Positions 3,536 through 17,331 of a DNA stretch of 64,000 bases are shown here, piece after piece. Origin of the DNA: Clostridia bacterium. Its GTDB lineage: Bacteria > Bacillota > Clostridia > TANB77 > CAG-508. Location: NCBI GenBank assembly GCA_017524665.1, contig JAFXVF010000015.1, positions 135,628-199,627 on the forward strand, read 5' to 3'. Each line of letters starts with the position of its first letter. Position 1 is the stretch's first letter. A program made the position numbers and the translations under genes. Below the pieces are notes generated by a model. The model was given only the letters and a program-made list of their open reading frames with translations, did not search any database and was not told the DNA's origin.

Positions 3536-3587
3536 TATATAATATTATATATTTTTTTACAATATTTTTTTAACATTTTATAAAAAA

Positions 3588-3620
3588 GAAACGTTTGGGA
3601 CGATTCCAAACGTTTCAAAA
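3588..3620. terminator. bidirectional intrinsic terminator hairpin (gaaacgtttggg-acgatt-ccaaacgtttc)
   Basis: 11-12 bp perfect stem with A/T-rich flanks. The same palindrome recurs at 10048-10078. Confidence 0.6.
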
Positions 3621-3724
3621 GTTTTTACTTTTTCGTTACATTCTATTCTTTTATATAGCCACGCAGTAAATACTTTACTAAAAAAACACTTATCTTTCGA
3701 TAAGTGTTTTTTATATTCTTTATT

Positions 3725-4390: not shown

Positions 4391-7168
4391 CTATTTTATT
4401 ACCTCTACGCATCTATGGCAAAGTGTTGGGTGGTCATGGTCATGTCCTACTGTTTCGTCATATCTCCAACATCTTTCACATTTTTCTCCAGATGCTACTT
4501 CTACTTTTACTCCGTATTTTTCGCCTTCATCTGCTCTAGAATTTTCCTCTATTACAACTTGTGAAACTATAAATACGTCTTGTAGTTCTTTTTCTACATC
4601 TTTTAAGAAGTCTAAATTTGCTCCTTCTGCATATAGTGTAACTTTTGCATTTAAAGAATGTCCTATTAGCTTTTCATTTCTTGCCATTTCAAGCTTTTTA
4701 GCAACTAATTCCTTTAAGTCTTCAATCTTATCCCATTTCTCTGCAAGTTCTTTGTTTTCATACTTGCTATTTGGTTCTGGGAAATATCCTAGCATTGGGC
4801 TTTGAGCCTTTTCATCAGATTTATGTGGCATAAACTTCCATATTTCTTCTGCAGTGAATACAGTCATTGGAGTTAGCATTTTCACTAAGTCTGATAGTAT
4901 GATAAACATTGTTGTTTGAGCTGCTCTTCTTTCAACTGAATCTGGTTTTGAAGTATAAAGTCTATCTTTTATAATATCTAGGTAAAAATTACTCATGTCA
5001 TTTACACAGAATTTATTTATTTCATGATATGCAATATGGAATTCATAAGTATCATAACTTTGAGTTACAACTTTTATTAATTCATTTAGCTTATATAATG
5101 CATATTTGTCTATGTCCATCAATTTTTCATATGGTACACATTCATCTGGGTTGAAGTCTGAGATGTTTCCAAGTATATATCTTGCTGTATTTCTTATTTT
5201 TCTATATACTTCAGTAATTTGTTTTAGTATGTCTTTAGATAAGCTTATTTCTGACTTGTAGTCTGAAGATAATACCCATAATCTTAATATGTCTGCTCCA
5301 TATTCCTTTATTACGTCTTGAGGGCTTATTACATTTCCTTCAGATTTTGACATCTTCTTGCCCTTTTCGTCTACTATAAATCCATGTGTTAATATTTCTT
5401 TATATGGTGCTACTCCTTTTGTTGCAACGCTTGTAAGTAGTGAAGATTGAAACCATCCACGATATTGGTCATTTCCCTCTAAGTACATATTGGCTGGTGG
5501 TAAACCACGTTCAGCTAAAACTGCTTCATGAGTTGATCCTGAATCGAACCAAACATCCATTATATCATTTTCTTTCTTAAAGTGTTTGCATCCACATTCT
5601 TTACATACAGCACCTTTTGGCATTAATTCTTCTTCTGGTAATTCATACCATACTGTAGAACCTTTTTCTCTAAATATGTCTTTTATTTTCTTTATTGATT
5701 CTGGAGTTATATATTCTTTTCCGCAGTCTTCACAATAGAATATTGGAATTGGAACACCCCAAGTACGTTGTCTTGAGATACACCAATCTGCTCTTTCTTT
5801 TACCATGCTAGAGATTCTTTCTTCTCCCCATGCAGGATACCATTTAACTGTTTTTATTGCTTCTAGAGCTTCATCTCTAAATCCTTCTACTGAAGCAAAC
5901 CATTGGTTTGTAGCACGGAATATTATAGGCTTTTTGCATCTCCAGCAATGTGGATATTGGTGAACCATGCTTTCTTTATGGAATAGATATTTATTGTCTT
6001 CAAGCCATTTTATAATTGCTTCATTTGAATCAGCATAGAACATGTTTTCAAAAGGTCCTGCACCTTCTCTTTGATATCCTTTTCCATCAACTGTTACAAT
6101 TATATCTAATCCATTTTTTAATCCGCAAAGGTAGTCTTCTTTACCATAGCTTGGTGCTGTGTGAACTGCACCTGTACCAGTATCTAGTTCAACTAAGATT
6201 GTATCATCGCTTCCTAATACAACTTTTGAAGTTCTATCAAGGAATGGATGCTTGCAAAGTGTGTTTTCAAGGTCACTTCCTTTGAATGTTTGCACAACTT
6301 TATATGAATCAATTCCTCCAACTTTCATTACTTCTTCAACAAGTTGAGCTGCTAACAAATAGCTTTCGTCTTTTGTTTCAACTAAGCTATAATCATAATC
6401 TCCACCAATTGTTATACCTGTGTTTCCTGGTAATGTCCATGGAGTTGTTGTCCATATTAAGAAATATGTTTTCTTTGTAGTATTTAGCTTAACACTAGGT
6501 TCTGTTACTTCAAATTTTACATATATTGAAGTTGTTTTATCTTCTTGGTATTCTATCTCTGCTTCTGCTAAAGCTGTTTCACAGTCTGTACACCAGTGAA
6601 CTGGTTTTAATCCTTTATATATGTATCCTTTTTCATACATTGTTCCAAATATACCTATTTGTCTTGCTTCAAATTCAGGTTGTAATGTAATATATGGATG
6701 TTCCCAATCTCCTAATACACCAAGTCTTTTGAATCCTTCTGTTTGCTTATCAACAAATGATAATGCAAAGTCACGGCATGTGTTTCTAAATTTGCTTACA
6801 GATACTTCATCACGATTTATTCCAAGTACTTGTATTGCTCTTCTTTCTGTTGGAAGGCCATGTGTATCATATCCTGGTATATATGGTGTGTAATATCCTT
6901 TTAAGTTTTTGTATCTTACTACTGTGTCTTTTAATATTTTATTTAATGCATGTCCTATATGGATTTCTCCATTTGCATATGGAGGGCCATCATGTAACAC
7001 ATAAGGTTCTTTTCCTTCATTCTTTTTTAGTGCTTTTTCGTAGAGCTTTCCTTCTTCGAAAACGGTTTCTAAAACTTTTGGTTCGTTTTCAGGTAAGCTT
7101 GCTCTCATTGGGAAGTCTGTTTTTGGTAAATTAAGCGTTTTACCATAATCTTTCTTTTCTTCTTCCAT
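4391..7168 (-). CDS. ileS: isoleucine--tRNA ligase
   Basis: 925 aa. HIGH motif (HIGHALNKILKD), KMSKS, N-terminal LPKTDFPMRASLPENEP, and C-terminal Zn-binding CxxC...CxxC, all typical of IleRS. Confidence 0.95.
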   Translation of the reverse strand: MEEEKKDYGKTLNLPKTDFPMRASLPENEPKVLETVFEEGKLYEKALKKNEGKEPYVLHDGPPYANGEIHIGHALNKILKDTVVRYKNLKGYYTPYIPGYDTHGLPTERRAIQVLGINRDEVSVSKFRNTCRDFALSFVDKQTEGFKRLGVLGDWEHPYITLQPEFEARQIGIFGTMYEKGYIYKGLKPVHWCTDCETALAEAEIEYQEDKTTSIYVKFEVTEPSVKLNTTKKTYFLIWTTTPWTLPGNTGITIGGDYDYSLVETKDESYLLAAQLVEEVMKVGGIDSYKVVQTFKGSDLENTLCKHPFLDRTSKVVLGSDDTILVELDTGTGAVHTAPSYGKEDYLCGLKNGLDIIVTVDGKGYQREGAGPFENMFYADSNEAIIKWLEDNKYLFHKESMVHQYPHCWRCKKPIIFRATNQWFASVEGFRDEALEAIKTVKWYPAWGEERISSMVKERADWCISRQRTWGVPIPIFYCEDCGKEYITPESIKKIKDIFREKGSTVWYELPEEELMPKGAVCKECGCKHFKKENDIMDVWFDSGSTHEAVLAERGLPPANMYLEGNDQYRGWFQSSLLTSVATKGVAPYKEILTHGFIVDEKGKKMSKSEGNVISPQDVIKEYGADILRLWVLSSDYKSEISLSKDILKQITEVYRKIRNTARYILGNISDFNPDECVPYEKLMDIDKYALYKLNELIKVVTQSYDTYEFHIAYHEINKFCVNDMSNFYLDIIKDRLYTSKPDSVERRAAQTTMFIILSDLVKMLTPMTVFTAEEIWKFMPHKSDEKAQSPMLGYFPEPNSKYENKELAEKWDKIEDLKELVAKKLEMARNEKLIGHSLNAKVTLYAEGANLDFLKDVEKELQDVFIVSQVVIEENSRADEGEKYGVKVEVASGEKCERCWRYDETVGHDHDHPTLCHRCVEVIK

Positions 7169-7194
7169 TTAAATCATTCCTTTCTCTTTTTTTC

Positions 7195-7401
7195 ATGTGT
7201 TCTAAAATAATAAATCTATATCTTACCACTGTTACCGCTCCCGGGAGAGTCTATTTTTTAAATACTCCCCTCTTCCCACTGGCGCTGTAGCAGTACTTCG
7301 TACTTAACAGCGCTCAGCGGTCCCCCCGAGCGGGTCGCCTTAAAAAATAGAAGCTCTCCCTCGCGCTAGTAACTACTTAAATTTATTATTTTAGAACACA
7401 T
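7195..7401. repeat. GC-rich palindromic insert (core 7216-7380) bounded by perfect 21-bp AT-rich inverted repeats (7195-7215 / 7381-7401), located in the ileS 5' leader
   Basis: The inverted repeat atgtgttctaaaataataaat / atttattattttagaacacat is perfect. The 165-nt core is about 55% GC in a 28% GC background. The core holds nested dyads: gctcccgggagagtctattttttaa vs ttaaaaaatagaagctctccctcgc; gcgctgt...acagcgc; agtac-ttc-gtact. Confidence 0.6.
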
Positions 7402-7640
7402 ACAAAAAATCCATTCCATCCTATAACTTAGGACGAAATGGATTAATAATTCCGCGGTACCACCTAATTTAGAAAAGCCTTATTGCTTTTCTCTCTTAAT
7501 TTATCTTTAACGCAAGATTTCAGCGACTTGTCCTACTATTAGTTCAAACAAGCAACTCCTAGGTGATGGCAAATTGTTTTATTCTACCGAACTTTCACCT
7601 TACATCGGCTCTCTAAAGACATATTTTCAATTTGTCGTAT
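7400..7640 (-). promoter_or_regulatory. T-box riboswitch leader of ileS
   Basis: The minus strand reads AATTAGGTGGTACCGCGG (plus 7453-7470), matching the T-box consensus AAUUAGGGUGGUACCGCG. Downstream on that strand is a terminator hairpin TCCATTTCGTCCTA/TAGGATGGAATGGA followed by TTTTTTG (plus about 7402-7445). An upstream AGAGAG (GA-motif-like) element and a candidate ATC specifier are also present. Confidence 0.8.
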
Positions 7641-7741
7641 CCTATTCAAAGTTTTTTAATTGTGTAGAATTATATCATGCAAATCTTAATAATGCAATAT
7701 CTTTATAAAAATTTGTTGTCTTTTTGTGTGAAATGTTTTCT

Positions 7742-8698
7742 TTACAAATATGATTTTAATAATTCCATATTTCCACATAATGTGTACTCTCCAAGTTTAG
7801 CAGGGATTATGAAGCTATCTCCTAGTTTTAAGTTGTATTCCTTATCTTGTACCTTTATTTTTCCTTCCCCTTTAACTACATTCATTGCATAGAAAGAATC
7901 TTTATTTGAGCAATCATTGAATTCCACACATACTGTTATTTTGTCTGTTTTAAAATATTGTGAAGAAATCATGTTGTGTTCGCCCTCTTGCCAGTTATTA
8001 GTTTCTTTAATTTCCGGCTTACTTCCTACATTTGCAACATCTATTGCTTTTTGTACGTGTAATTCTCTTGGCTTTCCATCTTTACCAACTCTTCCCCAGT
8101 CATATACTCTATATGTTAAGTCACTGTTTTGCTGCACTTCGCAAATTAATGTATCTCCCATAATTGCATGTACAGTTCCTGATGGTATGTAAATACAATC
8201 TCCCTGGTTAACCTGTACAAAGTTTAAATATTCTGCTACATTTGGGCTATTTAATACTTGTGGCAAGTCCTCTTTTCTTACACTTTCTTTTATTCCACAA
8301 ATTATTTGTGCGCCTTCTTTGCATTCCATAATGTACCACATTTCTGTTTTGCCCTTTTCGCCATTTTCATGTTCATATGCGTATTTATCATCTGGATGTA
8401 CTTGCACTGATAAATTGCTATTTGCATCAATAAATTTTACTAATAAAGGAAATTTATCTAATTCGCTTGTTTTCGTTCCAAAAATTGCTTCTCTTAGTTC
8501 ATGGTTTTCAAATAGTTCTCCTAAAGTTTTTCCTTTATTCTCACCGTTTGCTATAACACTTTGTCCATTTTTATTGGTTGAAATTTCCCAGCTTTCAGCA
8601 GTAATATCATAAGGTGAATTTTTTCCAAATAGAGTTTTTAATTTATTACCACCCCAGATATAATCTTTAAAAGCTGGTTCTAAAAAAATTGGTTCCAT
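7742..8698 (-). CDS. manA: mannose-6-phosphate isomerase, class I (cupin)
   Basis: 318 aa. N-terminal MEPIFLEPAFKDYIWGG motif and a size and layout typical of firmicute type I phosphomannose isomerase. Confidence 0.75.
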   Translation of the reverse strand: MEPIFLEPAFKDYIWGGNKLKTLFGKNSPYDITAESWEISTNKNGQSVIANGENKGKTLGELFENHELREAIFGTKTSELDKFPLLVKFIDANSNLSVQVHPDDKYAYEHENGEKGKTEMWYIMECKEGAQIICGIKESVRKEDLPQVLNSPNVAEYLNFVQVNQGDCIYIPSGTVHAIMGDTLICEVQQNSDLTYRVYDWGRVGKDGKPRELHVQKAIDVANVGSKPEIKETNNWQEGEHNMISSQYFKTDKITVCVEFNDCSNKDSFYAMNVVKGEGKIKVQDKEYNLKLGDSFIIPAKLGEYTLCGNMELLKSYL

Positions 8699-8822
8699 AT
8701 TTTTTGCCTCCTTAATTTTACTTATTATACCAATACATTTTTATTATTTCAATTGTTTTTGTTGCCTTTTGTTAGTGTATGTGCTAGAATATTAGCTACT
8801 AGAATAATAAGGAGTGAATATT

Positions 8823-10040
8823 ATGTCTAACGTTTTTGATATATTAGAAGAACGTGGTTATGTTGAACAACTAACCGACGAAAAAGAAGTACGTGCTATG
8901 TTTGATAAAGGAAGCATTCCATTTTATATTGGTTTTGACCCAACTGCAGATAGTCTTCATGTTGGTCACTTTGTTTCTATGATGGTTGCATCTCATATGC
9001 AAAAGTGCGGACACAAACCAATTATATTAATTGGTGGTGGTACTGCAAGTATTGGAGATCCATCAGGAAAAACTGATATGAGAAAAATGATGACACGTGA
9101 AGTAATTGACCATAACGTTGCATGTTTTAAAGTTCAACTTTCAAAGTTTTTAGATTTTGAAGGTGATAATGCTGCAATTATAGTAAACAACGCAGATTGG
9201 CTTTGCAATTTAAACTATATTGATTTTATGAGAGATATTGGAAGTAAATTCTCAGTTAATAGAATGCTTGCTGCTGAATGCTATAAATCAAGACTAGATA
9301 CTGGTTTAACTTTCTTAGAAATGGGATACATGTTACTACAATCATACGACTTTTTATATTTATATGACCATTATGGATGCAAGCTTGAAATGGGTGGAAA
9401 TGATCAATGGTCTAATATAATTGGCGGAGTTGAATTAGTTAGAAAAATAGGTCACTCAGATGCTTATGGTTTAACTTTCCGTCTTCTTACTACAAAAGAA
9501 GGTAAAAAGATGGGTAAAACTGAAAAAGGTGCATTATGGCTTGACCCAGAAAAAACATCTCCTTATGAATTTTATCAATACTGGAGAAATATTGATGATG
9601 CAGACGTACGTACAGTATTAAGCCTACTTACATTCTTACCAATGGATGAAGTTAATCGTTTGTCTAATTTAAAAGATGAGCAAATAAATGAAGCTAAAAA
9701 AGTTGCTGCGTTTGAAATAACAAAATTAATTCACGGTGAAGTTGAAGCAAGAAAAGCTGAAGAAGCTGCTTCTGCTCTATTTGGTGGAAATGGTGGAAGT
9801 ATAGAAAATATGCCTTGTGAAAAAGTTGATTCTACTTCTATTTCAATTGTAGATGCTGTTGTTACTGCAAAACTTGCTCCTTCAAAAGGACAAGCAAAAA
9901 CATTGATATCTCAAGGTGCTGTAACATTAAATGACGAAAAAATATCTGATATAGGATATATGTTATCTGATAAAGACTTTAGCGAAGGATACGCTATTTT
10001 AAGAAAAGGAAAGAAAAATTATTGTAAATTAGAAAAATAA
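8823..10040 (+). CDS. tyrS: tyrosine--tRNA ligase
   Basis: HIGH-class motif (HVGH), KMGKT (KMSKS), and a C-terminal S4-like domain. The RBS AAGGAG lies 8 nt upstream of ATG 8823; the ORF track begins at an upstream GTG at 8814. Confidence 0.93.
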
Positions 10041-10047
10041 AAAAGTG

Positions 10048-10078
10048 AAACGTTTGGCATGATTCCAAACGTTTCATT
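10048..10078. terminator. bidirectional terminator hairpin (gaaacgtttggc-atgatt-ccaaacgtttc) + T-tract
   Basis: Perfect palindrome followed by tttttttt. It separates convergent tyrS and clpX and is near-identical to the 3588-3620 hairpin. Confidence 0.65.
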
Positions 10079-10082
10079 TTTT

Positions 10083-11393
10083 TTATGCTGTTTGATTGTT
10101 TCTTTTTTGCTCTACTTTTCTTTTTGAAATTTTCTTTGTTGTTTCTCTATTTTCATTTATTACAAGTTTTGGCTCTACTTTCTTTTCTACTGTTTCTTTT
10201 GTAATAATACATGTTTCTATTTTAGGATTTGATGGTATTTCAAACATGATGTCTCTCATTACATCTTCTATTATAGAACGTAATCCTCTTGCTCCAGTAT
10301 TTCTTTCAATTGCTTTGTCAACAATTAAATTTAATGCTTCTGGCTCAAATTCTAGATTTACATTATCAAGTTTAAATAGTTTCTTATATTGCTTTACAAG
10401 CGCATTCTTAGGCTCTGTTACTATCTTTATTAGTGCTTCTCTATCTAGTTCTCTTAATGTTGCTATTATAGGAAGTCTTCCAACAAATTCAGGTATAAGT
10501 CCAAATTTTAATAAATCTTGAGGTAACAATTCTTCAAATACCTTGTATTTGTCTATTTCTTTTTTGCTTTCTATATGTGCTCCAAAGCCTATTGATTTTT
10601 GGCCTATTCTATCTTTAATTATTTTTTCAAGTCCTTCAAATGCACCACCACATATAAATAAAATGTTTTCTGTGTTGATTTGTAAGAATTCTTGATGAGG
10701 ATGTTTTCTTCCACCTTGTGGAGGTACTGAAGCTGTTGTTCCTTCAACTATTTTTAAAAGTGCTTGCTGTACTCCTTCTCCACTAACGTCTCTTGTTATA
10801 GATGGATTTTCTGATTTTCTTGAAATCTTATCAATTTCATCTATATATATAATACCTCTTTCAGCTTTGCTTATGTCATAATCAGCTGCCTGAATAAGCT
10901 TTAAAAGTATGTTTTCAACGTCTTCTCCAACATATCCAGCTTCTGTAAGTGTTGTTGCATCAGCTATTGCAAAAGGAACATCCAATATCTTAGCTAATGT
11001 TCTTGCTAAATATGTTTTTCCACATCCTGTAGGTCCTAATAGTAATACATTGCTTTTTTGAATCTCTACATCATTATCCTTTTTATTATCTTCTGCATTA
11101 ATTCTTTTATAGTGGTTATATACAGCAACTGCCAAAGTTTTCTTTGCATCTTCCTGGCCTATTATATATTCGTCAAGCACTGCTTTTATTTCTTTTGGAC
11201 TTGGAATGTGTTCTTCTGATATATTGTATTCCATTTCGTCTTCTAGGAATTCATCTTCAATTATTTTATTGCATACGTTTATACATTCATCACATATAAA
11301 TACATTTGGCCCTGCAATTATTTTCTTAACACTTTCTTGTGGTTTCCCACAAAAAGAGCATCTGATATTTTTTTCTTTTTCGTTTTTTTGCAT
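10083..11393 (-). CDS. clpX: ATP-dependent Clp protease ATP-binding subunit ClpX
   Basis: N-terminal Zn-finger (CSFCGK...CDEC) and AAA+ Walker A (GPTGCGKT). Confidence 0.95.
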
Positions 11394-11479
11394 TACAGTT
11401 CTCCTTTATTTATATTTCATTTGCAAATTAATTATAAACAGCCCTCCACGTTTTACGTAGAAGGCCACTTGTATTTTTG

Positions 11480-12079
11480 TTATGGATGTTTATCTAATAC
11501 ACCATCTATTAGCCCATATTCTAATGCTTCTTGGGCTGTCATGAAATTATCTCTTTCTGTATCTTGATTAATTCTTTCTAATGGTTGGCCTGTTCTTTCA
11601 CTTAAAATTCTGTTTAGCTTTTCTCTTGTCTTTACCATGTGGTCAGCATGAATTTTAATTTCTGTTGTTTGACCAGCAAGTCCTCCTGATATTAAAGGTT
11701 GATGTATCATTATTTCAGCATTTGGTGTTGCAAAACGCTTACCTTTTGTTCCTGATGCTAAAAGCACAGCTCCCATGCTTGCTGCCATTCCAACACATAT
11801 TGTTGAAACAGGGCATTTTACATAGTTTATTGTATCAAATATAGCCATTCCATCTGTTATTGATCCGCCTGGACTATTTATATAAAAATATATTTCTTTG
11901 TCAGGGTCTTCTGACTCTAAGAATAACATTTGTGCTACAACTAGGCTCGCTGTAGCTTGATTAACGTCCTCACTTAAAAATATAATTCTATCTTTTAATA
12001 ATCTTGAGAATATGTCATATGACCTTTCTCCTCTGTTTGTTTGTTCAATAACATACGGTACTAAACTATCTTTTATCAT
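11480..12079 (-). CDS. clpP: ATP-dependent Clp protease proteolytic subunit
   Basis: 199 aa, typical ClpP sequence (RIIFL..., GMAASMGA..., HQP). Gene order tig-clpP-clpX. Confidence 0.95.
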
Positions 12080-12165
12080 TTATTTCCTCCTTAATTTGCC
12101 TTTGGCGTTTGGCATTTGGTTATTAGCTTTATTTTTTACTAATTTCTAAATGCTAAATACATTTT

Positions 12166-13449
12166 CTATTTTATTTTAGCATTACTTACTAAGAAGTCAA
12201 TAGCTTTTTCATTCTTTAGGTTTTCTTTTATGTATTCATTAAGTTGAACATTGTTAATAAGTTCTTCTTCTTTTCTATTATAGTTCTTAGCCATTTCTTT
12301 TATTTTTTCTGTTACTTCCTCGTTTGTTGGTTCAATCTTTTCTGCTTTAATAACAGCATCTAAAACTAGTCTTGCTTTTACAGCTTCTTTAGCAGGCTCT
12401 TCGTTTTCTTTTCTAAAGTCTGTCATTGTTTTTCCTACCATTTTTAGATAGTCATCTAGTTTTATTCCTTGATATGAAAGTCTTTGCTCAACATCTTTTG
12501 CAACGTTGTCAATTTCTGTATCTATCATTCCAGAAGGAATATCAATTTCTGTTGCATCAGCTAAAGCTTTAATTACAGCATCTTCTGTTTCGTGCTTTGC
12601 TCTGTGCTCATTTTCATGCTCTAATTTTTCCTTTATATCTGCTTTTAATTCTTTTAATGTATCAAATTCGCTAACGTCTTTTGCAAATTCGTCATCTAAT
12701 TTTGGTAATTCTTTCTTCTTTATTTCATGAACTTTTACTTTAAATACAGCTGGTTTTCCTGCAAGTTCTTTTGAGAAGTAGTCTTCTGGGAATGTTACAT
12801 TGATGTCCTTTTCTTCATCAATTTTCATTCCAATAACTTGCTCTTCAAATCCATTTATAAATGTATGGCTTCCAATTGTTAATTCGTGTCCTTCTGCTTT
12901 TCCTCCTTCAAAAGGAACTCCATCTACAGATCCTTCGAAGTCAATAGTTGCAATGTCTCCATCTTCAACTGGTCTATTGTCTATTGTAACTAATCTGCTA
13001 TTCTTTTCTTGCATATGTCCAAGTTCATGTTCAATATCTTCATCAGTTACATTATACTCTATTTTTTTAATTTCTATACCTTTATATTTTCCAAGTTTTA
13101 CCTCAGGCTTTGTTTGAACTATAGCTGTAAATATAAGGTCTTTACCTTTGCCCATTTGTGTAATATCTATATCAGGTTTACTTACTACTTCTATGTTGTT
13201 GTTCTTTACTTCTTCATCAAATACTTCTGGTACAACTTCATTAAATGCATCTTCATAGAAAACTTCGTCTCCATAAACTTTTTCTACAATGTGCATAGGT
13301 GCTTTACCTTTTCTAAATCCAGGTATATTAAAATATTTCTTGTTTTTTTCATATACTTTCTTTATTCCTTCGTCAAATTTAGCTGCCTCAATTGTAAACT
13401 CTAACTTTACCTCATTTTTGTTTTCTGTCTTACTAACTTTCATACTCAT
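12166..13449 (-). CDS. tig: trigger factor
   Basis: 427 aa. N-terminal ribosome-binding signature GFRKGKAP, a central PPIase-like region, and an acidic C-terminus. Confidence 0.9.
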   Translation of the reverse strand: MSMKVSKTENKNEVKLEFTIEAAKFDEGIKKVYEKNKKYFNIPGFRKGKAPMHIVEKVYGDEVFYEDAFNEVVPEVFDEEVKNNNIEVVSKPDIDITQMGKGKDLIFTAIVQTKPEVKLGKYKGIEIKKIEYNVTDEDIEHELGHMQEKNSRLVTIDNRPVEDGDIATIDFEGSVDGVPFEGGKAEGHELTIGSHTFINGFEEQVIGMKIDEEKDINVTFPEDYFSKELAGKPAVFKVKVHEIKKKELPKLDDEFAKDVSEFDTLKELKADIKEKLEHENEHRAKHETEDAVIKALADATEIDIPSGMIDTEIDNVAKDVEQRLSYQGIKLDDYLKMVGKTMTDFRKENEEPAKEAVKARLVLDAVIKAEKIEPTNEEVTEKIKEMAKNYNRKEEELINNVQLNEYIKENLKNEKAIDFLVSNAKIK

Positions 13450-13558
13450 TTTAATTCATTCCTCCAAAATGTTATTTCTATTTAAATAAAATAGCCTTTA
13501 TACTATATCACAAAGTTTCTTTTGTTGCAAGCATTTTATGTCAATTTAATAATATTGT

Positions 13559-14674
13559 TTACATTTCTAAATCCGGCTTTAATGAGACTAATGGACAAAT
13601 TGCATTATTTGCTATTAGAATTATTTTTCCCATCCAGCCAGAATCTCCTCCACTAACTCCAATTATGTAGCCTTTTGCCCCACAGCTTGGGGAACATAGC
13701 CAAAAGCCATTATAGTCTGATATATAATAAAAGTTGTTTAATATTTCATCTGGTTTGATTATATTAGCATCTGTGTCATAGCCATATCCATTTATAGCTA
13801 CACTACTTGAAGAAGGGCTTACAGCATATCCATAATTATTATCATTAAATGGATACATACATTCTAACTTGGTTCTATTTGAATTCAAATTTTCTGAATT
13901 TGTTTCGTCTGTTAAGCCATAATGTGTATTATAACTGTCTATATACATTTCTACACTTGCTGCGCCAATTACATAATTAATTCTATCAGATAGATTAGGG
14001 TTCACATTATTTTTTAAATTTTCCCATTTTTTTGTATCGGAAAGCCAAATCGCTACCTTCATATTTAAATTATCTGTTGAAGGTGCTAGCGTTTTTTCTT
14101 CACCAATTAATTTTTCTTTTGCATATAGTAGTGGATTTAGCTCTCTAATTTTTGAAGAAGCTAAATTACCCTCAACTGTTTCGAATGTATCAGTATTCAT
14201 AAATGAATAATAATTGTTCGTGCAGTCAGCTCTTAAATATATTGTCCCTGCTCCGTCTCCATATTTATTTTCAAAGTCAATCCAAAAAAGCCTATATTGA
14301 TTAGATACAACATATGTTTTACCATCTATTGTTATATTAGTTGGTGCTCCTGTATAATCTGTTGCAATTTTACCTAAATGTTCTGCAAAATTTGACTTTG
14401 TAAGAGTTAATTCTTCACTATTTCCATCTTTATCTGTTAATTTAATATTTACAGAGATTAAATTTGAAAATGCTTTATTTAATTCTTTTTCCATTAATTC
14501 TGTATTATAACTGTATTTATCTGTAGAATCTTTTGTTTTTGCAAATAGTCCTTCTTCGTTGGCTGAAAATGATATTGCAACTCCTGCTAAAATCAGCAAA
14601 ACAATTACCGTGATTACAAGTGCAATTAAAGTAATTCCTTCATTACGGCCCATAGCCTCTTTACTTTTCTTCAT
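13559..14674 (-). CDS. secreted/surface protein with atypical prepilin-like (class III) N-terminus
   Basis: N-terminus MKKSKEAMGRNEGITLIALVITVIVLLILAGVAIS: basic leader, Gly, then a 20-residue hydrophobic helix, as in type IV pilins, but with Ala instead of Glu at +5. The protein is paralogous at its N-terminus to the 61848-62075 ORF. Confidence 0.5.
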   Translation of the reverse strand: MKKSKEAMGRNEGITLIALVITVIVLLILAGVAISFSANEEGLFAKTKDSTDKYSYNTELMEKELNKAFSNLISVNIKLTDKDGNSEELTLTKSNFAEHLGKIATDYTGAPTNITIDGKTYVVSNQYRLFWIDFENKYGDGAGTIYLRADCTNNYYSFMNTDTFETVEGNLASSKIRELNPLLYAKEKLIGEEKTLAPSTDNLNMKVAIWLSDTKKWENLKNNVNPNLSDRINYVIGAASVEMYIDSYNTHYGLTDETNSENLNSNRTKLECMYPFNDNNYGYAVSPSSSSVAINGYGYDTDANIIKPDEILNNFYYISDYNGFWLCSPSCGAKGYIIGVSGGDSGWMGKIILIANNAICPLVSLKPDLEM

Positions 14675-14699
14675 TTGTTTTCTCCTTTTTATAATATCT

Positions 14700-15398
14700 T
14701 TAGCTTAATTGAATTAGCTTAAAATCTGTATAATCACAACTTACAAGCTTAAATTCTATTCCTTCTATTAGTCCTTCTTTTGCTTCTTTGTGTGATGGTC
14801 CATGTAAATGACCATAAATACACTTTTTTACATTATACTGTTTCATTAAACTTATAAAATTGCATTCTTCATCATCCATTGTATTAAATGGTGGGTAATG
14901 CATACACACTATTATTTCTTTTTTCGTTCCATATTTTGCTATCCCATCTTCTAAAGAAAGCTTTAGCCTATTTCTTTCTCGCTTCAAAATTCTTTTTCCA
15001 TCTTCTAAATCTAAACTTGTCCATCCTCTTGTTCCACATATAATGTGGCCTTCATATTCATAACTGCTGTTATATATAAAATCTATATCTTTATAGTTGT
15101 TCTCCTGCAAATATCTCCTCATTGATGTAATAGTAGTCCACCAGTAGTCATGGTTTCCTTTTAATAGCAATTTTTTTCCAGGTAATTCATTTAAGTAATC
15201 AAAATCGTAGTTGGTGTCCTTTAAATACATAGCCCATGAAAAATCTCCTGGCAATAATACTAAATCATTTGGCTTTACTTTACTAATCCAATCTTCTTTT
15301 ATCTTTTCAGCATGTCCTTCCCAATTTGCACCAAATATATCCATTGGCTTATTTTCGCCAAATGATAAGTGCAAATCAGCGATTGCGTATATACTCAA
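14700..15398 (-). CDS. metallophosphoesterase
   Basis: Motifs IADLH, LPGDF, GNHDYW and HGHLH indicate a calcineurin-like phosphoesterase. TTG start with GGAGG 8 nt upstream. Confidence 0.7.
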   Translation of the reverse strand: MSIYAIADLHLSFGENKPMDIFGANWEGHAEKIKEDWISKVKPNDLVLLPGDFSWAMYLKDTNYDFDYLNELPGKKLLLKGNHDYWWTTITSMRRYLQENNYKDIDFIYNSSYEYEGHIICGTRGWTSLDLEDGKRILKRERNRLKLSLEDGIAKYGTKKEIIVCMHYPPFNTMDDEECNFISLMKQYNVKKCIYGHLHGPSHKEAKEGLIEGIEFKLVSCDYTDFKLIQLS

Positions 15399-15449
15399 TT
15401 AATTCGCCTCCATTTTTTTCGTAATTACATAATGAAATTTAAATCGTCC

Positions 15450-15569
15450 TTAGGTAATATATTATTTATTTTTTGCTCCTTGTTGTCGCTTACGCTCCAT
15501 TCGCCTAGGGTCATTTCCACTCGGGGAGCTTCCCTACGCGTCGCTTAAAATAAATAATATATTACCTAA
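15450..15569. repeat. GC-rich core (15473-15546) bounded by perfect 23-bp AT-rich inverted repeats (15450-15472 / 15547-15569)
   Basis: The arms ttaggtaatatattatttatttt / aaaataaataatatattacctaa are perfect. The core ...cgcttacgctccattcgcctagggtcatttccactcggggagcttccctacgcgtcgc... is GC-rich and internally dyadic. The architecture is the same as the 7195-7401 element. Confidence 0.55.
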
Positions 15570-15591
15570 TTTGATTCAAATGCTTTATCCT

Positions 15592-16581
15592 TTAAATCTT
15601 TAAATTAGGCACTGCATTTAAGTACATGTTTGATGTATTTCCTTCTAAATAATTGTAATATGCTGTAGATGCTATCATAGCAGCATTGTCTGTGCATAAT
15701 ACTGGCTCTGGATAGTAAACTTTTAGGTTTTCTTCTTGGCCAAATTTTAAGAATTGTTCTCTTATATAGCTATTAGCAGATACTCCCCCTGCTAATGCTA
15801 TTGTTTTAATTCCAAGCTGATTTGCAGCTCTTTTAGTATTTTCTATTAGTACTTCAGTTACTGTTTTTTCAAAGCTTGCACATAAGTCGGCTTTATTTAT
15901 GTCTGGGTTTTTATGGTGCATATTTATAATTGCTGTTTTTATTCCACTAAAACTAAAATCCAAATTCTCAAAATGAGTTTTAGGAAGTGCAATATTTGGA
16001 GTTCCTTCTTTTGCAAGTTTATCTACTTTAGGTCCTCCTGGATAGCCTAATCCGACAACTCTTGCAACTTTATCAAATGCTTCTCCAATTGCATCATCTC
16101 TTGTTTTTCCCAATATCTCAAATTCGGTATAGTTTTTTATATGTATTAAATGTGTGTGTCCACCTGAAATTACTAAACATAAAAATGGTGGTTTTAAATC
16201 TTCATGACATATGTAATTTGCTGCAATATGCCCTTGAATATGGTTTGCTCCAATTAGTGGCTTGTTTAACGCATAGCTTAATCCTTTTGCATATGAAACT
16301 CCAACTAATAGTGCTCCAACTAATCCAGGTCCATATGTACAAGCAATTACGTCAATATCTTGAAGTGTTACATTTGCTCGTTTTAATGCTTCTTTTGTTA
16401 CACCATTTATTGCTTCTATGTGATATCTAGATGCAATTTCAGGTACAACTCCACCATATGTCTCATGGATTTTTATTTGTGATTCTATAACATTAGATAA
16501 AACTTCTCTGCCGTTTTTTACAACAGCTACAGAAGTTTCATCACAACTTGATTCGATTCCTAATACTAATATATCTTTCAT
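15592..16581 (-). CDS. tsaD: tRNA N6-adenosine threonylcarbamoyltransferase
   Basis: 329 aa. [13 protein letters not shown] and a conserved His/Asp metal site typical of Kae1/TsaD. Confidence 0.9.
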
Positions 16582-16593
16582 TTCTTTTTCCTT

Positions 16594-17331
16594 TTACATA
16601 AACATTCCAAATAGCCCACCTATTGCCCAGCTTAGACCAGATATAATTGCATTTATTATTGGAGTAATAATTAGGCTTGCTATGTCTGTTATCCATATAA
16701 TTAAAAATATAATATAAAATACATATTCATTTGCTTCCATCCAAACTCTTGCATTGTATGGTAAAAATCTTTTTAATATTTTTGATCCGTCTAGTGGTGG
16801 CAATGGTATTAAGTTAAATACTCCAAGTCCAACGTTTACTATTACTGTATAGCTTAACATTGTTACTATAACTTCACCTACAGTTGAATGTAAAAAACCT
16901 GCACTTGCAAATGTTGTTACAGCATAGAAAATCACAGTAAATACAATAGATAATATAAAATTCATAAGTGGCCCTGCAAATGCAACTATTGCCTCACAAG
17001 TAGATGCCGAAAACTTGCTGTTAAAGTTTCTTGGATTTATTTGTACTGGTTTTCCCCATCCTATATGAGCAAATACTAGCATAAATATTCCAAATGGGTC
17101 TATATGGCTTAATGGGTTTAAATTAAGCCTGCCTTGCATTCTTGGTGTATCATCTCCTAATTTGTCTGCAGCAAATGCATGAGAAAACTCATGAAATGTT
17201 ATTGCAACTAATACACCTGGTAAAGTAAGCAATATATCTACAATACTAAATTGTCCTCTCGTAATGCTCATTATAGCTAGCAATATTAGAATAATATAAA
17301 TATAACTATTTCTATTGGACGAATAAAACAT
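16594..17331 (-). CDS. site-2 protease family (M50-like) zinc metalloprotease, membrane
   Basis: HEFSHAFAA (HExxH) inside a polytopic membrane protein. Trimmed to the internal Met (MFYSSNRNSYIY...) to avoid overlap with the upstream gene; the longer ORF extends to 17460. Confidence 0.65.
   Translation of the reverse strand: MFYSSNRNSYIYIILILLAIMSITRGQFSIVDILLTLPGVLVAITFHEFSHAFAADKLGDDTPRMQGRLNLNPLSHIDPFGIFMLVFAHIGWGKPVQINPRNFNSKFSASTCEAIVAFAGPLMNFILSIVFTVIFYAVTTFASAGFLHSTVGEVIVTMLSYTVIVNVGLGVFNLIPLPPLDGSKILKRFLPYNARVWMEANEYVFYIIFLIIWITDIASLIITPIINAIISGLSWAIGGLFGMFM

Follow-up and report, generated by a model that had tools for sequence, protein, structure and literature searches.

Type IV pilins carry a signal peptide of class III, namely a hydrophilic leader with a terminal Gly followed by 21 mostly hydrophobic residues, in which position +5 is 'almost invariably' Glu (PMC4471445). 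Position −1 of prepilin-peptidase sites is Gly or Ala in the literature, the same pair that occurs in the family described here. Bacterial Glu5 mutants retain cleavage and do not form homopolymeric pili, and Glu5 is often absent from archaeal pilins (PMC4471445). A Glu5-less subunit is placed at the tip of bacterial filaments (PMC10191384). Glu5 is regarded as a near-universal requirement for bacterial type IV filament assembly, and pilin annotation based on motifs and models relies on it. The nearest published analogue of the present genes is found in the type V pilins of Bacteroides, hypervariable pilus adhesins that are diversified by diversity-generating retroelements (DGRs; bioRxiv 10.1101/2024.11.15.621889). 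The DNA analysed here is a stretch of 64 kb from a Clostridia bacterium (contig JAFXVF010000015.1), called the window below. It contains two genes, for proteins of 371 aa and 75 aa, that share a pilin-like N-terminus without Glu5. It is somewhat probable that both proteins carry a lineage-specific, Glu5-less type IV pilin module and that both are processed by a pilus machine. The two genes and the parts of their common module are as follows.

13559..14674, minus strand: gene for the 371-aa protein, with a pilin-like module, a linker, a beta-rich middle and a putative lectin-like C-terminal domain (translation).
14636..14674, minus strand: leader of the 371-aa protein, residues 1–13 (MKKSKEAMGRNEG), ending in Gly−1 (translation).
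14564..14635, minus strand: hydrophobic helix, residues 14–37 (ITLIALVITVIVLLILAGVAISFS), the counterpart of alpha1-N in pilins; +1 is Ile and +5 is Ala (hydropathy; helix 15–38 of the AlphaFold2 (AF2) model).
14459..14563, minus strand: amphipathic continuation, residues 38–72 (ANEEGLFAKTKDSTDKY...), which resembles pilin alpha1-C and is common to the 75-aa protein (BLASTP to residue 62; AF2 helix 43–72).
61848..62075, minus strand: gene for the 75-aa minimal pilin-like protein (translation, homology).
62043..62075, minus strand: leader of the 75-aa protein, residues 1–11 (MKKDKKYAERG; translation).
61971..62042, minus strand: hydrophobic helix, residues 12–35 (ITLVALVITVIVLLILAGVTVTLA; family profile in register with MshA, PilA and geopilin).

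Plus-strand translation of both ranges is filled with stop codons and gives no open reading frame (ORF), which places both genes on the minus strand, at the coordinates given in the earlier note. The 371-aa ORF starts with MKKSKEAMGRNEG, continued after its Gly by ITLIALVITVIVLLILAGVAISFSANEEGLFAKTKDSTDKY, and the 75-aa ORF starts with MKKDKKYAERG, continued by ITLVALVITVIVLLILAGVTVTLAVGSDGIFTKSNAAVDKY. The common start is a basic leader, Gly, and then ITL[IV]ALVITVIVLLILAGV with Ala at +5. In both proteins the helix after Gly is made up of 23–24 uncharged residues with a mean hydropathy of 2.8, and there are no charged residues among the 24 that follow Gly. The replacement of Glu by Ala at +5, as reported in the earlier note, is therefore present in both. 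In BLASTP, the pair shares 33 of 67 positions (E 3e-16) and the homology is confined to the first ~65 residues. Because it stops there, the two genes have a common N-terminal module and are not full-length paralogues; the paralogy and near-identical N-termini claimed in the earlier note hold for the module and not for the remainder. Its leader motif, R/N-E-G, is correct for the Gly at −1, but the preceding residues are N-E in the 371-aa protein and E-R in the 75-aa protein. Different synonymous codons are used in the two genes at 11 of the 19 identical residues of the G...V stretch. Selection acting on the amino-acid sequence is therefore taken as the source of the identity; chance is rejected, and so is recent gene conversion as an explanation of the identical helices. 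A six-frame motif scan of the window (GC content 0.312) finds the motif at these two sites only. The shared Glu5-less pilin-like N-terminus is real and more than chance.

The kinship of the module with type IV pilins is seen most clearly with family profiles. A single-sequence search against PDB sequences returns geopilin only (E 0.39). When the profile of the short family is used, the top four PDB matches are all pilins: MshA (E 0.0015), PilA (0.0096) and geopilin, as two chains (0.015 and 0.14). MshA, PilA and the better of the geopilin chains align with the module in register at Gly−1, for example lkkqkG/ITLVALVITiiVLLILAG against MKRQQG/FTLIELVVVIIILGILA, where the slash follows Gly−1. By this comparison, the module is homologous to pilin N-termini, and the class III architecture proposed earlier from the letters alone is upheld. 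Every published class III feature is present in the window proteins except Glu5.

Both proteins belong to large families. The 371-aa protein is an exact match to NCBI MBR6034153.1 ('hypothetical protein IKP28_05430', from a Clostridia metagenome-assembled genome, or MAG) and has 1601 homologues at E≤1e-3. Its full-length identity to the family is 35–42%. Among the 120 homologues listed, none contains a Pfam domain. The 75-aa protein has 761 relatives at E≤1e-3, and the 120 listed are mostly 69–88 aa. The motif was checked in 238 relatives, namely the listed homologues of the 371-aa protein (118) and of the 75-aa protein (120). Position −1 is Gly in 236 of these and Ala in 2, +1 is Ile in all 238, and +5 is Ala in 236. 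Separately, Gly at −1 is found in 116/118 members of the 371-aa family (median leader 11, median net charge +3) and in 120/120 members of the 75-aa family (median leader 7). Across the two families the leaders are net positive, with a median charge of +2 or +3. Column entropy in the 371-aa family is 0.5–0.6 bits in the helix and 1.5–2.5 bits in the adjoining blocks. A pattern in the continuation of the helix, G..GI[FL].KA..A..Y, recurs in relatives of both proteins. The search for other GITL[IV]ALV N-termini that the earlier note advised gives none in the window beyond these two, and a family-wide trait in the relatives.

The motif is also retained in more distant proteins. In 138 further profile matches, Gly−1 is present in 138, Ile+1 in 137 and Ala+5 in 133. 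Among 1.84 billion cluster representatives, the short-family profile matches 32,255 at a threshold of E≤1e-3, of which 21,933 remain at E≤1e-10. Nearly all of the matches listed have the module at the N-terminus, in host proteins of ~70–700 aa. Among 80 loci from GTDB species representatives there are 106 leader-bearing ORFs of 42–1156 aa (median 382). Tandem arrays of 2–4 leader-bearing genes are frequent in these loci, and one MAG can hold several loci. The MAGs behind almost all of the 80 loci are of uncultured Clostridia, sampled from rabbit, human (Hadza), chicken and rumen. Origin from phages is unlikely; 2.9 million viral contigs contain 9 relatives, all similar at the N-terminus only, compared with at least 374 relatives in GTDB genomes. 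One locus, L090 (CAVFFR010000017.1), contains a single leader-bearing gene on a contig binned as 'Bacteroidaceae bacterium'. The other 79 are nearly all titled Clostridia, Clostridium sp., Clostridiales or Eubacteriales, and the L090 label probably reflects a mistake in binning and not a real presence outside Clostridia. In a literature search, the string 'GITLIALV' appears in no paper.

Short members of the family are found in pilus operons. In 14 operons from uncultured Clostridia, members of 71–168 aa are directly upstream of a PilD-like gene, and the same operons contain PilM/N/O-like, minor-pilin, PilB, PilT-like and PilC genes. The short members P0233, P0121 and P0213, from different lineages, are all in this operon type. 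The genes of the operon, in order, are as follows.

Gene 1: ~545-aa PilM/N-like protein with a weak PilN-like C-terminus.
Gene 2: ~225-aa membrane and coiled-coil protein, PilO-like.
Gene 3: ~135-aa membrane protein.
Gene 4: 71–77-aa pilin.
Gene 5: 209–270-aa PilD-like protein, Pfam A24_N_bact.
Gene 6: one or two small minor pilins with pilin-like N-termini, [KR]G/xTxx[D/S].
Gene 7: PilB, a T2SSE ATPase with an MshEN domain.
Gene 8: PilT-like, a second T2SSE ATPase of 365 aa.
Gene 9: PilC, a T2SSF protein.
Gene 10: ROK-family gene.

Ten of the 80 GTDB loci have this operon, and in each of them one to three tandem leader-bearing genes (74–168 aa) are immediately upstream of the PilD-like gene. 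This placement is also seen in L004–L011 and L019–L020. The minor pilins of the operon start with KG/VTTAD, RG/VTTTS, KG/YTGID, KG/ATLTD or KG/ITLIS, with Asp or Ser at +5. Four to five proteins per operon share a [KR]G/xTxx[D/S/A] site, a pattern that the substrates of a single prepilin peptidase would show and that points to a common processing site. Between lineages, PilB is 61–71% identical, the PilT-like ATPase 67–74% and the PilD-like protein 41–57% across the GTDB loci; the latter reaches 77% identity between the two closest lineages. This conservation of the whole operon between lineages favours a function in cleavage for the PilD-like protein. The genomic context settles the kinship of the module with pilins. 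Two features of individual operons were also recorded. In L007 (12064–13696) and L008 (7601–9233), which represent the lineage closest to that of the window, PilB is split into overlapping ORFs of 242 and 320 aa. The split is probably real because two independent assemblies show it, and the pilus machine may be decaying in the L007/L008 organism. In L004, L007, L009 and L019, the four pilus-operon lineages with gene calls, the ROK-family gene is directly 3' of pilC and is sometimes split in two; RNase J is near pilC/ROK in three of these four loci, so that the linkage is a conserved one.

The genome of the window very probably has this operon on another contig, L019. The PilD-like protein of L019, P0242 (212 aa), is NCBI MBR6033666.1, 'MAG: prepilin peptidase [Clostridia bacterium]', and is 77% identical to that of L007. 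Its accession and that of the 371-aa protein (MBR6034153.1) are 487 apart, with the same source and contig pattern. Logan run SRR12529272 contains P0242 and both window proteins. L019 has a complete operon and a GC content of 0.312, the same as the window. The 75-aa pilin directly upstream of its PilD-like gene is 72% identical to the 75-aa protein of the window. By this similarity, the window gene is an orphan second copy (paralogue) of the putative operon-encoded major pilin. The earlier note named the lack of a prepilin peptidase homologue in the genome as an outcome that would count against a pilin-type signal; MBR6033666.1 is such a homologue, in what is very probably the same MAG.

The PilD-like family is related to canonical prepilin peptidases and is divergent from them. 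It matches A24_N_bact (PF06750) with E 1.3e-29. The canonical reference alignment consisted of Acetoanaerobium PilD, BfpP, an A24 peptidase of P. aeruginosa and a GspO-type enzyme of E. coli, and hhalign aligns the PilD-like family to it over 244 columns with a probability of 99.9% (E 6.5e-32). The Asp of an AGIDKE motif falls on catalytic Asp1 and is conserved in 115/120 sequences (MAFFT column); a stricter AGIDKE-type pattern is found in 102/120. The AF2 model of P0242 has six helices and a zinc ribbon (predicted local distance difference test score, pLDDT, 91), and the PilD-like profile matches zinc fingers only among PDB sequences. The non-canonical prepilin peptidase suggested in the earlier note has a candidate in this linked PilD-like protein, which has A24_N_bact but no detectable Peptidase_A24 domain and no GxGD.

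Under the pilin reading, both window proteins would insert in the membrane with the N-terminus inside and the C-terminus outside, and the PilD-like enzyme would cut the leader after Gly at the cytoplasmic face. A PilB/PilC machine would then pull the helix out of the membrane and polymerise it, and PilT would drive retraction. Expressed at a high level, the 75-aa protein would act as the major subunit or as an alternative one. Without Glu5 the N-terminal amine would stay unpaired, for which archaeal pilins and the Glu5-less tip subunit of bacterial filaments are precedents. The 371-aa protein would be a modular pilin whose module presents a ligand-binding, lectin-like domain, either on the pilus (e.g. 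at the tip) or at the membrane.

A number of observations weigh against this reading. Neither window gene adjoins any pilus gene. Regular expressions find no PilB/PilT motif and no PilD GxGDxK anywhere in the 64 kb, and tblastn of a complete pilus operon against the window matches the two N-termini and no other pilus homologue, as the earlier note had reported for PilB/C/D-like genes. The putative major pilin has neither Glu nor Asp at +5. Pfam N_methyl (PF07963) matches the two proteins at the right position with 11.0 and 11.3 bits, below its cut-off of 21.2. This is the only signal for either protein in Pfam, NCBIfam and PHROGs, none of which gives a match above threshold, and no NCBIfam pilin model reaches threshold for either protein. 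Because Glu5 is absent and the scores remain below the model thresholds, the proteins are read as a variant lineage and not as canonical class III substrates. There are tens of thousands of such proteins, many per genome, far above the usual numbers of pilins. The organisms involved are all uncultured. The PilD-like family does not match Peptidase_A24 (PF01478) even at E≤10, and the canonical GxGD aligns to non-acidic columns. The GxGD segment is deleted in the forms of 209–214 aa, which include the 212-aa P0242 and have two helices fewer. A candidate acidic substitute at the cytoplasmic end of helix 5 (D181 of P0242) is variable. Of 117 sequences, 76 have Asp and 24 have Glu there, 14 have no such residue, and a possible substitute is counted in 102. 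A Foldseek search of the PDB with the PilD-like model gives nothing significant, its matches being rhodopsin-like helical bundles at E>0.5.

In one alternative, the proteins are plain signal-anchored surface proteins. Here a pilin-derived helix would serve as an uncleaved anchor, N-in/C-out, especially in the large members, and only the short operon members would be real pilins. The 23–24 uncharged residues after a basic leader are enough for a stable membrane span. The great size of the family (42–1156 aa, many genes per genome), a linked PilD-like peptidase without GxGD, and the position of the two window genes away from pilus genes are also as this alternative would have it. However, Gly−1, Ile+1, Thr+2 and Ala+5 are near-invariant in proteins that are 35–40% identical or unrelated, and a generic anchor needs no such sequence. 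Synonymous codons differ at the conserved helix, and the only residue that replaces Gly at −1 is Ala, as at prepilin-peptidase sites. The large and short proteins also share the same extended module, including the amphipathic helix. A plain anchor is therefore considered rather unlikely, although it is the alternative to which most weight is given. An ordinary Sec signal peptide, cut by signal peptidase I past the hydrophobic stretch (e.g. at TLA in the 75-aa protein) so that the product is released or wall-associated, is very unlikely. The basic n-region, the hydrophobic core and the small residues after it (AGVA, TLA) are those of such a peptide, and signal peptides of Gram-positive bacteria can be long. 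A core of 23–24 residues is nevertheless longer than typical h-regions, and conservation peaks at the start of the helix (G-ITL) while the putative A-x-A site varies (ISF/SAN, TLA/VGS, SIN/AVL). Cleavage there would also reduce the 75-aa protein to a peptide of ~40 residues, yet its relatives fill the pilin slot of pilus operons.

The earlier note had also considered an archaeal-type enzyme, and absence of Glu5 is common in archaeal pilins (PMC4471445). The candidates would be a FlaK/PibD-like peptidase or the SipW-type (TIGR02228) signal peptidase I encoded at 55194–55775 in the window. The peptidase linked by synteny is, however, of the bacterial A24_N_bact type (E 1e-29) and aligns with PilD/BfpP/GspO at 99.9%, which makes it a bacterial PilD relative and speaks against the FlaK/PibD proposal. 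The SipW-type gene adjoins its own candidate substrates, which have different N-termini (...AKYTSEA, ...AKYKTTA), and no FlaK-like gene is seen in the window or in any retrieved locus. Processing by an archaeal-type enzyme is accordingly highly improbable, and the Glu5-less pilin module remains the preferred reading of the two genes.

Relatives of the 371-aa protein include targets of DGRs. In members of the family the helix is near-invariant, and after it come a variable linker, beta-rich domains that are conserved and a hypervariable core of 27 residues, with an entropy of 2.4 bits in the core and 0.7–0.8 in its flanks. The core is enclosed by a conserved scaffold, W-L-x-S-P-S ... C-P-L-V-S-L. 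The corresponding parts of the window gene are as follows.

13580..13702, minus strand: C-terminal segment W325–L365 (WLCSPS...AICPLVSL), equivalent to the DGR variable region of the relatives (family alignment).
13601–13684, minus strand: hypervariable core, residues 331–358 (column entropy).

In locus L001, three tandem paralogues of 378–380 aa adjoin genes for bAvd and an RVT_1 reverse transcriptase (RT). Between Avd and RT is a 120-nt repeat, to which the 3' end of each of the three genes is similar. Mismatches between variable region (VR) and template repeat (TR) are at template adenines in 27/28 and 25/25 cases for two of the paralogues; the third VR contains an indel. Mismatches of this kind, nearly all at template adenines, are a DGR signature. 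Other leader-bearing DGR targets have different C-termini. In L023, 23/24 mismatches are at A and RT and Avd are nearby; the values are 25/26 in L091 and 22/25 in L076. The VRs of the family are rich in G/Y/N/S, and K/E/Q/M/W make up 3.9% of them, compared with 17% of the remaining protein. Judged from these repeats, DGRs diversify relatives of the 371-aa protein. No paper on DGR targets with type IV pilin leaders, or on this motif, was found in the literature. The L001 region (6900–17000) has one TR (15578–15697) for its three targets. Between the targets there are AAA_14/DUF4143 ATPase genes and a fragment of a SpoU methylase, and a MutS_I fragment is just before bAvd.

The window copy differs from these targets. 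In the 64 kb, neither a repeat search nor blastn-short with the VR-equivalent as query finds a repeat of 13559–13730, and when the L001 RT and Avd are searched by tblastn, all matches have E>2. In the AT-rich VR-equivalent (13601–13684), the encoded residues include K, W, M and K, none of which results from AAC-type mutagenesis. The exact 371-aa protein is unchanged in at least 9 contigs from several samples. We conclude that this copy has a fixed, drifted VR, barring a remote DGR elsewhere in the genome. The 371-aa protein is thus a DGR-family member by sequence and not an operating target by what the window holds. Since there is no DGR nearby and the variable region has drifted, it is probably an adhesin of fixed specificity in this genome.

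The AF2 model of the 371-aa protein (pLDDT 82) has helices at 15–38 and 43–72, followed by beta-rich domains. Foldseek against the PDB finds nothing significant, with no significant match to the pilin lollipop fold, in which an alpha1 helix of about 50 residues is packed on a beta-sheet head. Weak fold matches are to PvdO (4.4), the type V pilin 4EPS (4.4), the Lcl C-terminal domain (4.1), TaqVP (4.0), TvpA (3.7) and Mtd (3.2). These matches of the model to lectin/FGE folds agree in kind but are weak. The gene is 25 nt downstream of a metallophosphoesterase gene on the same strand (14700–15398) and upstream of the trigger factor gene.

The 75-aa gene has strong expression signals of its own. 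Its product leaves no space for a globular head.

62125..62153, minus strand: promoter-like site, TTGACA, 17 nt, TATAAT, with TG before the −10 (extended −10), matching 12/12 consensus positions.
62083..62090, minus strand: ribosome-binding site AAAGGAGG, 7 nt before the ATG (sequence reading).
61761..61800, no strand assigned: GC-rich inverted repeat of 13 bp (AGCAGAGCGGTGA ... TCACCGCTCTGCT) with TTTT after it, located between the 75-aa and GH13 genes, which converge (sequence reading).

The promoter-like site is ~50 nt 5' of the ATG. The inverted repeat is likely a bidirectional terminator; a terminator scan does not report it because its loop is 14 nt. The gene is flanked on one side by a GH13 gene of 45% GC and on the other by a small membrane ORF. 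Misassembly as the cause of its position beside the GC-rich GH13 gene is rejected, as three independent assemblies have the same arrangement. The surrounding segment, 59860–62790, has a GC content of 0.42–0.45 in a genome of 0.31, and the AT-rich 75-aa gene is inside it. It contains a GH13 alpha-amylase-family gene (59860–61755, plus strand) and a 126-aa membrane ORF (62328–62708), and it may be a horizontally acquired island.

Several other features of the window were noted. The signal peptidase I at 55194–55775 is of the SipW type (archaeal/ER-type) and matches TIGR02228 with 65.1 bits (cut-off 51.85). It is flanked by three to four proteins without a family assignment (53758–56765, minus strand), three of which have an N-terminal membrane helix followed by AKYTSEA, AKYKTTA or ARYVYNT. 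The group looks like a TasA/camelysin-like cluster for secreted fibres. Nearly the same intergenic palindromic element (GAAACGTTTGG...ATTCCAAACGTTTC) is present at 3582–3640 and 10023–10081, in inverted orientation and 6.4 kb apart. Terminator hairpins of a shared type, or a small repeat element, may account for the two copies. On the plus strand, a long run of degenerate T/C-rich repeats (40183–40597) falls within a 1190-aa ORF (37576–41148, minus strand), where it would correspond to a low-complexity stretch rich in Glu and Lys.

The closest described relatives of the short proteins are the type IVa major pilins (Geobacter PilA-N/geopilin and MshA/PilA). Common to both are a basic leader of 5–13 residues with a terminal Gly, ~21–24 hydrophobic residues in register, a small size (75 aa in the window) and a gene near PilD, PilB, PilT and PilC. 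Unlike these pilins, the present family has Ile rather than Phe as residue +1, and at +5 it has Ala where those pilins almost invariably have Glu (PMC4471445). It also differs in its acid-free helix, in its sub-threshold N_methyl scores and in a PilD-like protein without GxGD. That protein resembles PilD/ComC (MEROPS A24A) in its N-terminal Cys-rich domain, multi-pass membrane body, Asp1 and C-terminal P[FI]G[FP]Y motif. It differs from them in the lack of PF01478 and GxGD, in short forms without two of the helices and in a variable second acidic residue. If the pilin reading is true, a lineage with Ala5 major pilins and a PilD-like protein without GxGD would mean that the chemistry of assembly has more latitude than has been supposed. 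Pilins of this kind can stay unannotated; there are ~22,000 clusters, and of the proteins examined none reaches the threshold of a Pfam family.

The 371-aa protein resembles the modular pilins PilB and PilC of Streptococcus sanguinis, in that an unrelated, putatively adhesive domain is grafted on a pilin module. Tip-capping minor pilins of the GspK/PilK class likewise lack Glu5 (PMC10191384), but in the present family the putative major pilin lacks it as well. Compared with modular and tip pilins, the repertoire is far larger (tandem arrays, thousands of clusters) and some members are DGR targets. The relatives share with the DGR variable proteins TvpA, TaqVP and Mtd a C-terminal, G/Y/N/S-rich VR and an adenine-mutagenised TR beside bAvd/RT, and the 371-aa model has its weak matches to TaqVP, TvpA, Lcl-C and 4EPS. 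The window copy differs from these proteins: its VR contains K, W and M, and the 64 kb are without TR, RT and Avd. The family is distinguished from the type V pilins of Bacteroides by its type IV pilin-like N-terminal module and its Clostridia hosts. Gut Clostridia may diversify pilus- or membrane-borne adhesins as Bacteroides do with type V pili, which bears on colonisation and phage-receptor dynamics in animal guts.

Archaeal class III proteins, such as pilins and the sugar-binding proteins of the Sulfolobus bindosome, are similar in that Glu5 is often missing and the signal is present on many surface proteins that do not form filaments (PMC4471445). They differ from the present family in motif, and the machinery here is bacterial (A24_N_bact PilD-like, PilM/N/O-like and PilT-like proteins). 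A broader possibility, advanced tentatively and with less confidence than the pilin reading, is that the module is a general Glu5-less, pilin-derived signal by which tens of thousands of surface proteins in a large clade of uncultured gut Clostridia are exported and displayed via the pilus machine, whose PilD-like enzyme would have lost the canonical GxGD, with the DGR-hypermutated subset acting as programmable type IV pilus adhesins. If true, bacteria would have in it a counterpart both to the class III secretome of archaea and to the type V pili that DGRs diversify in Bacteroides.

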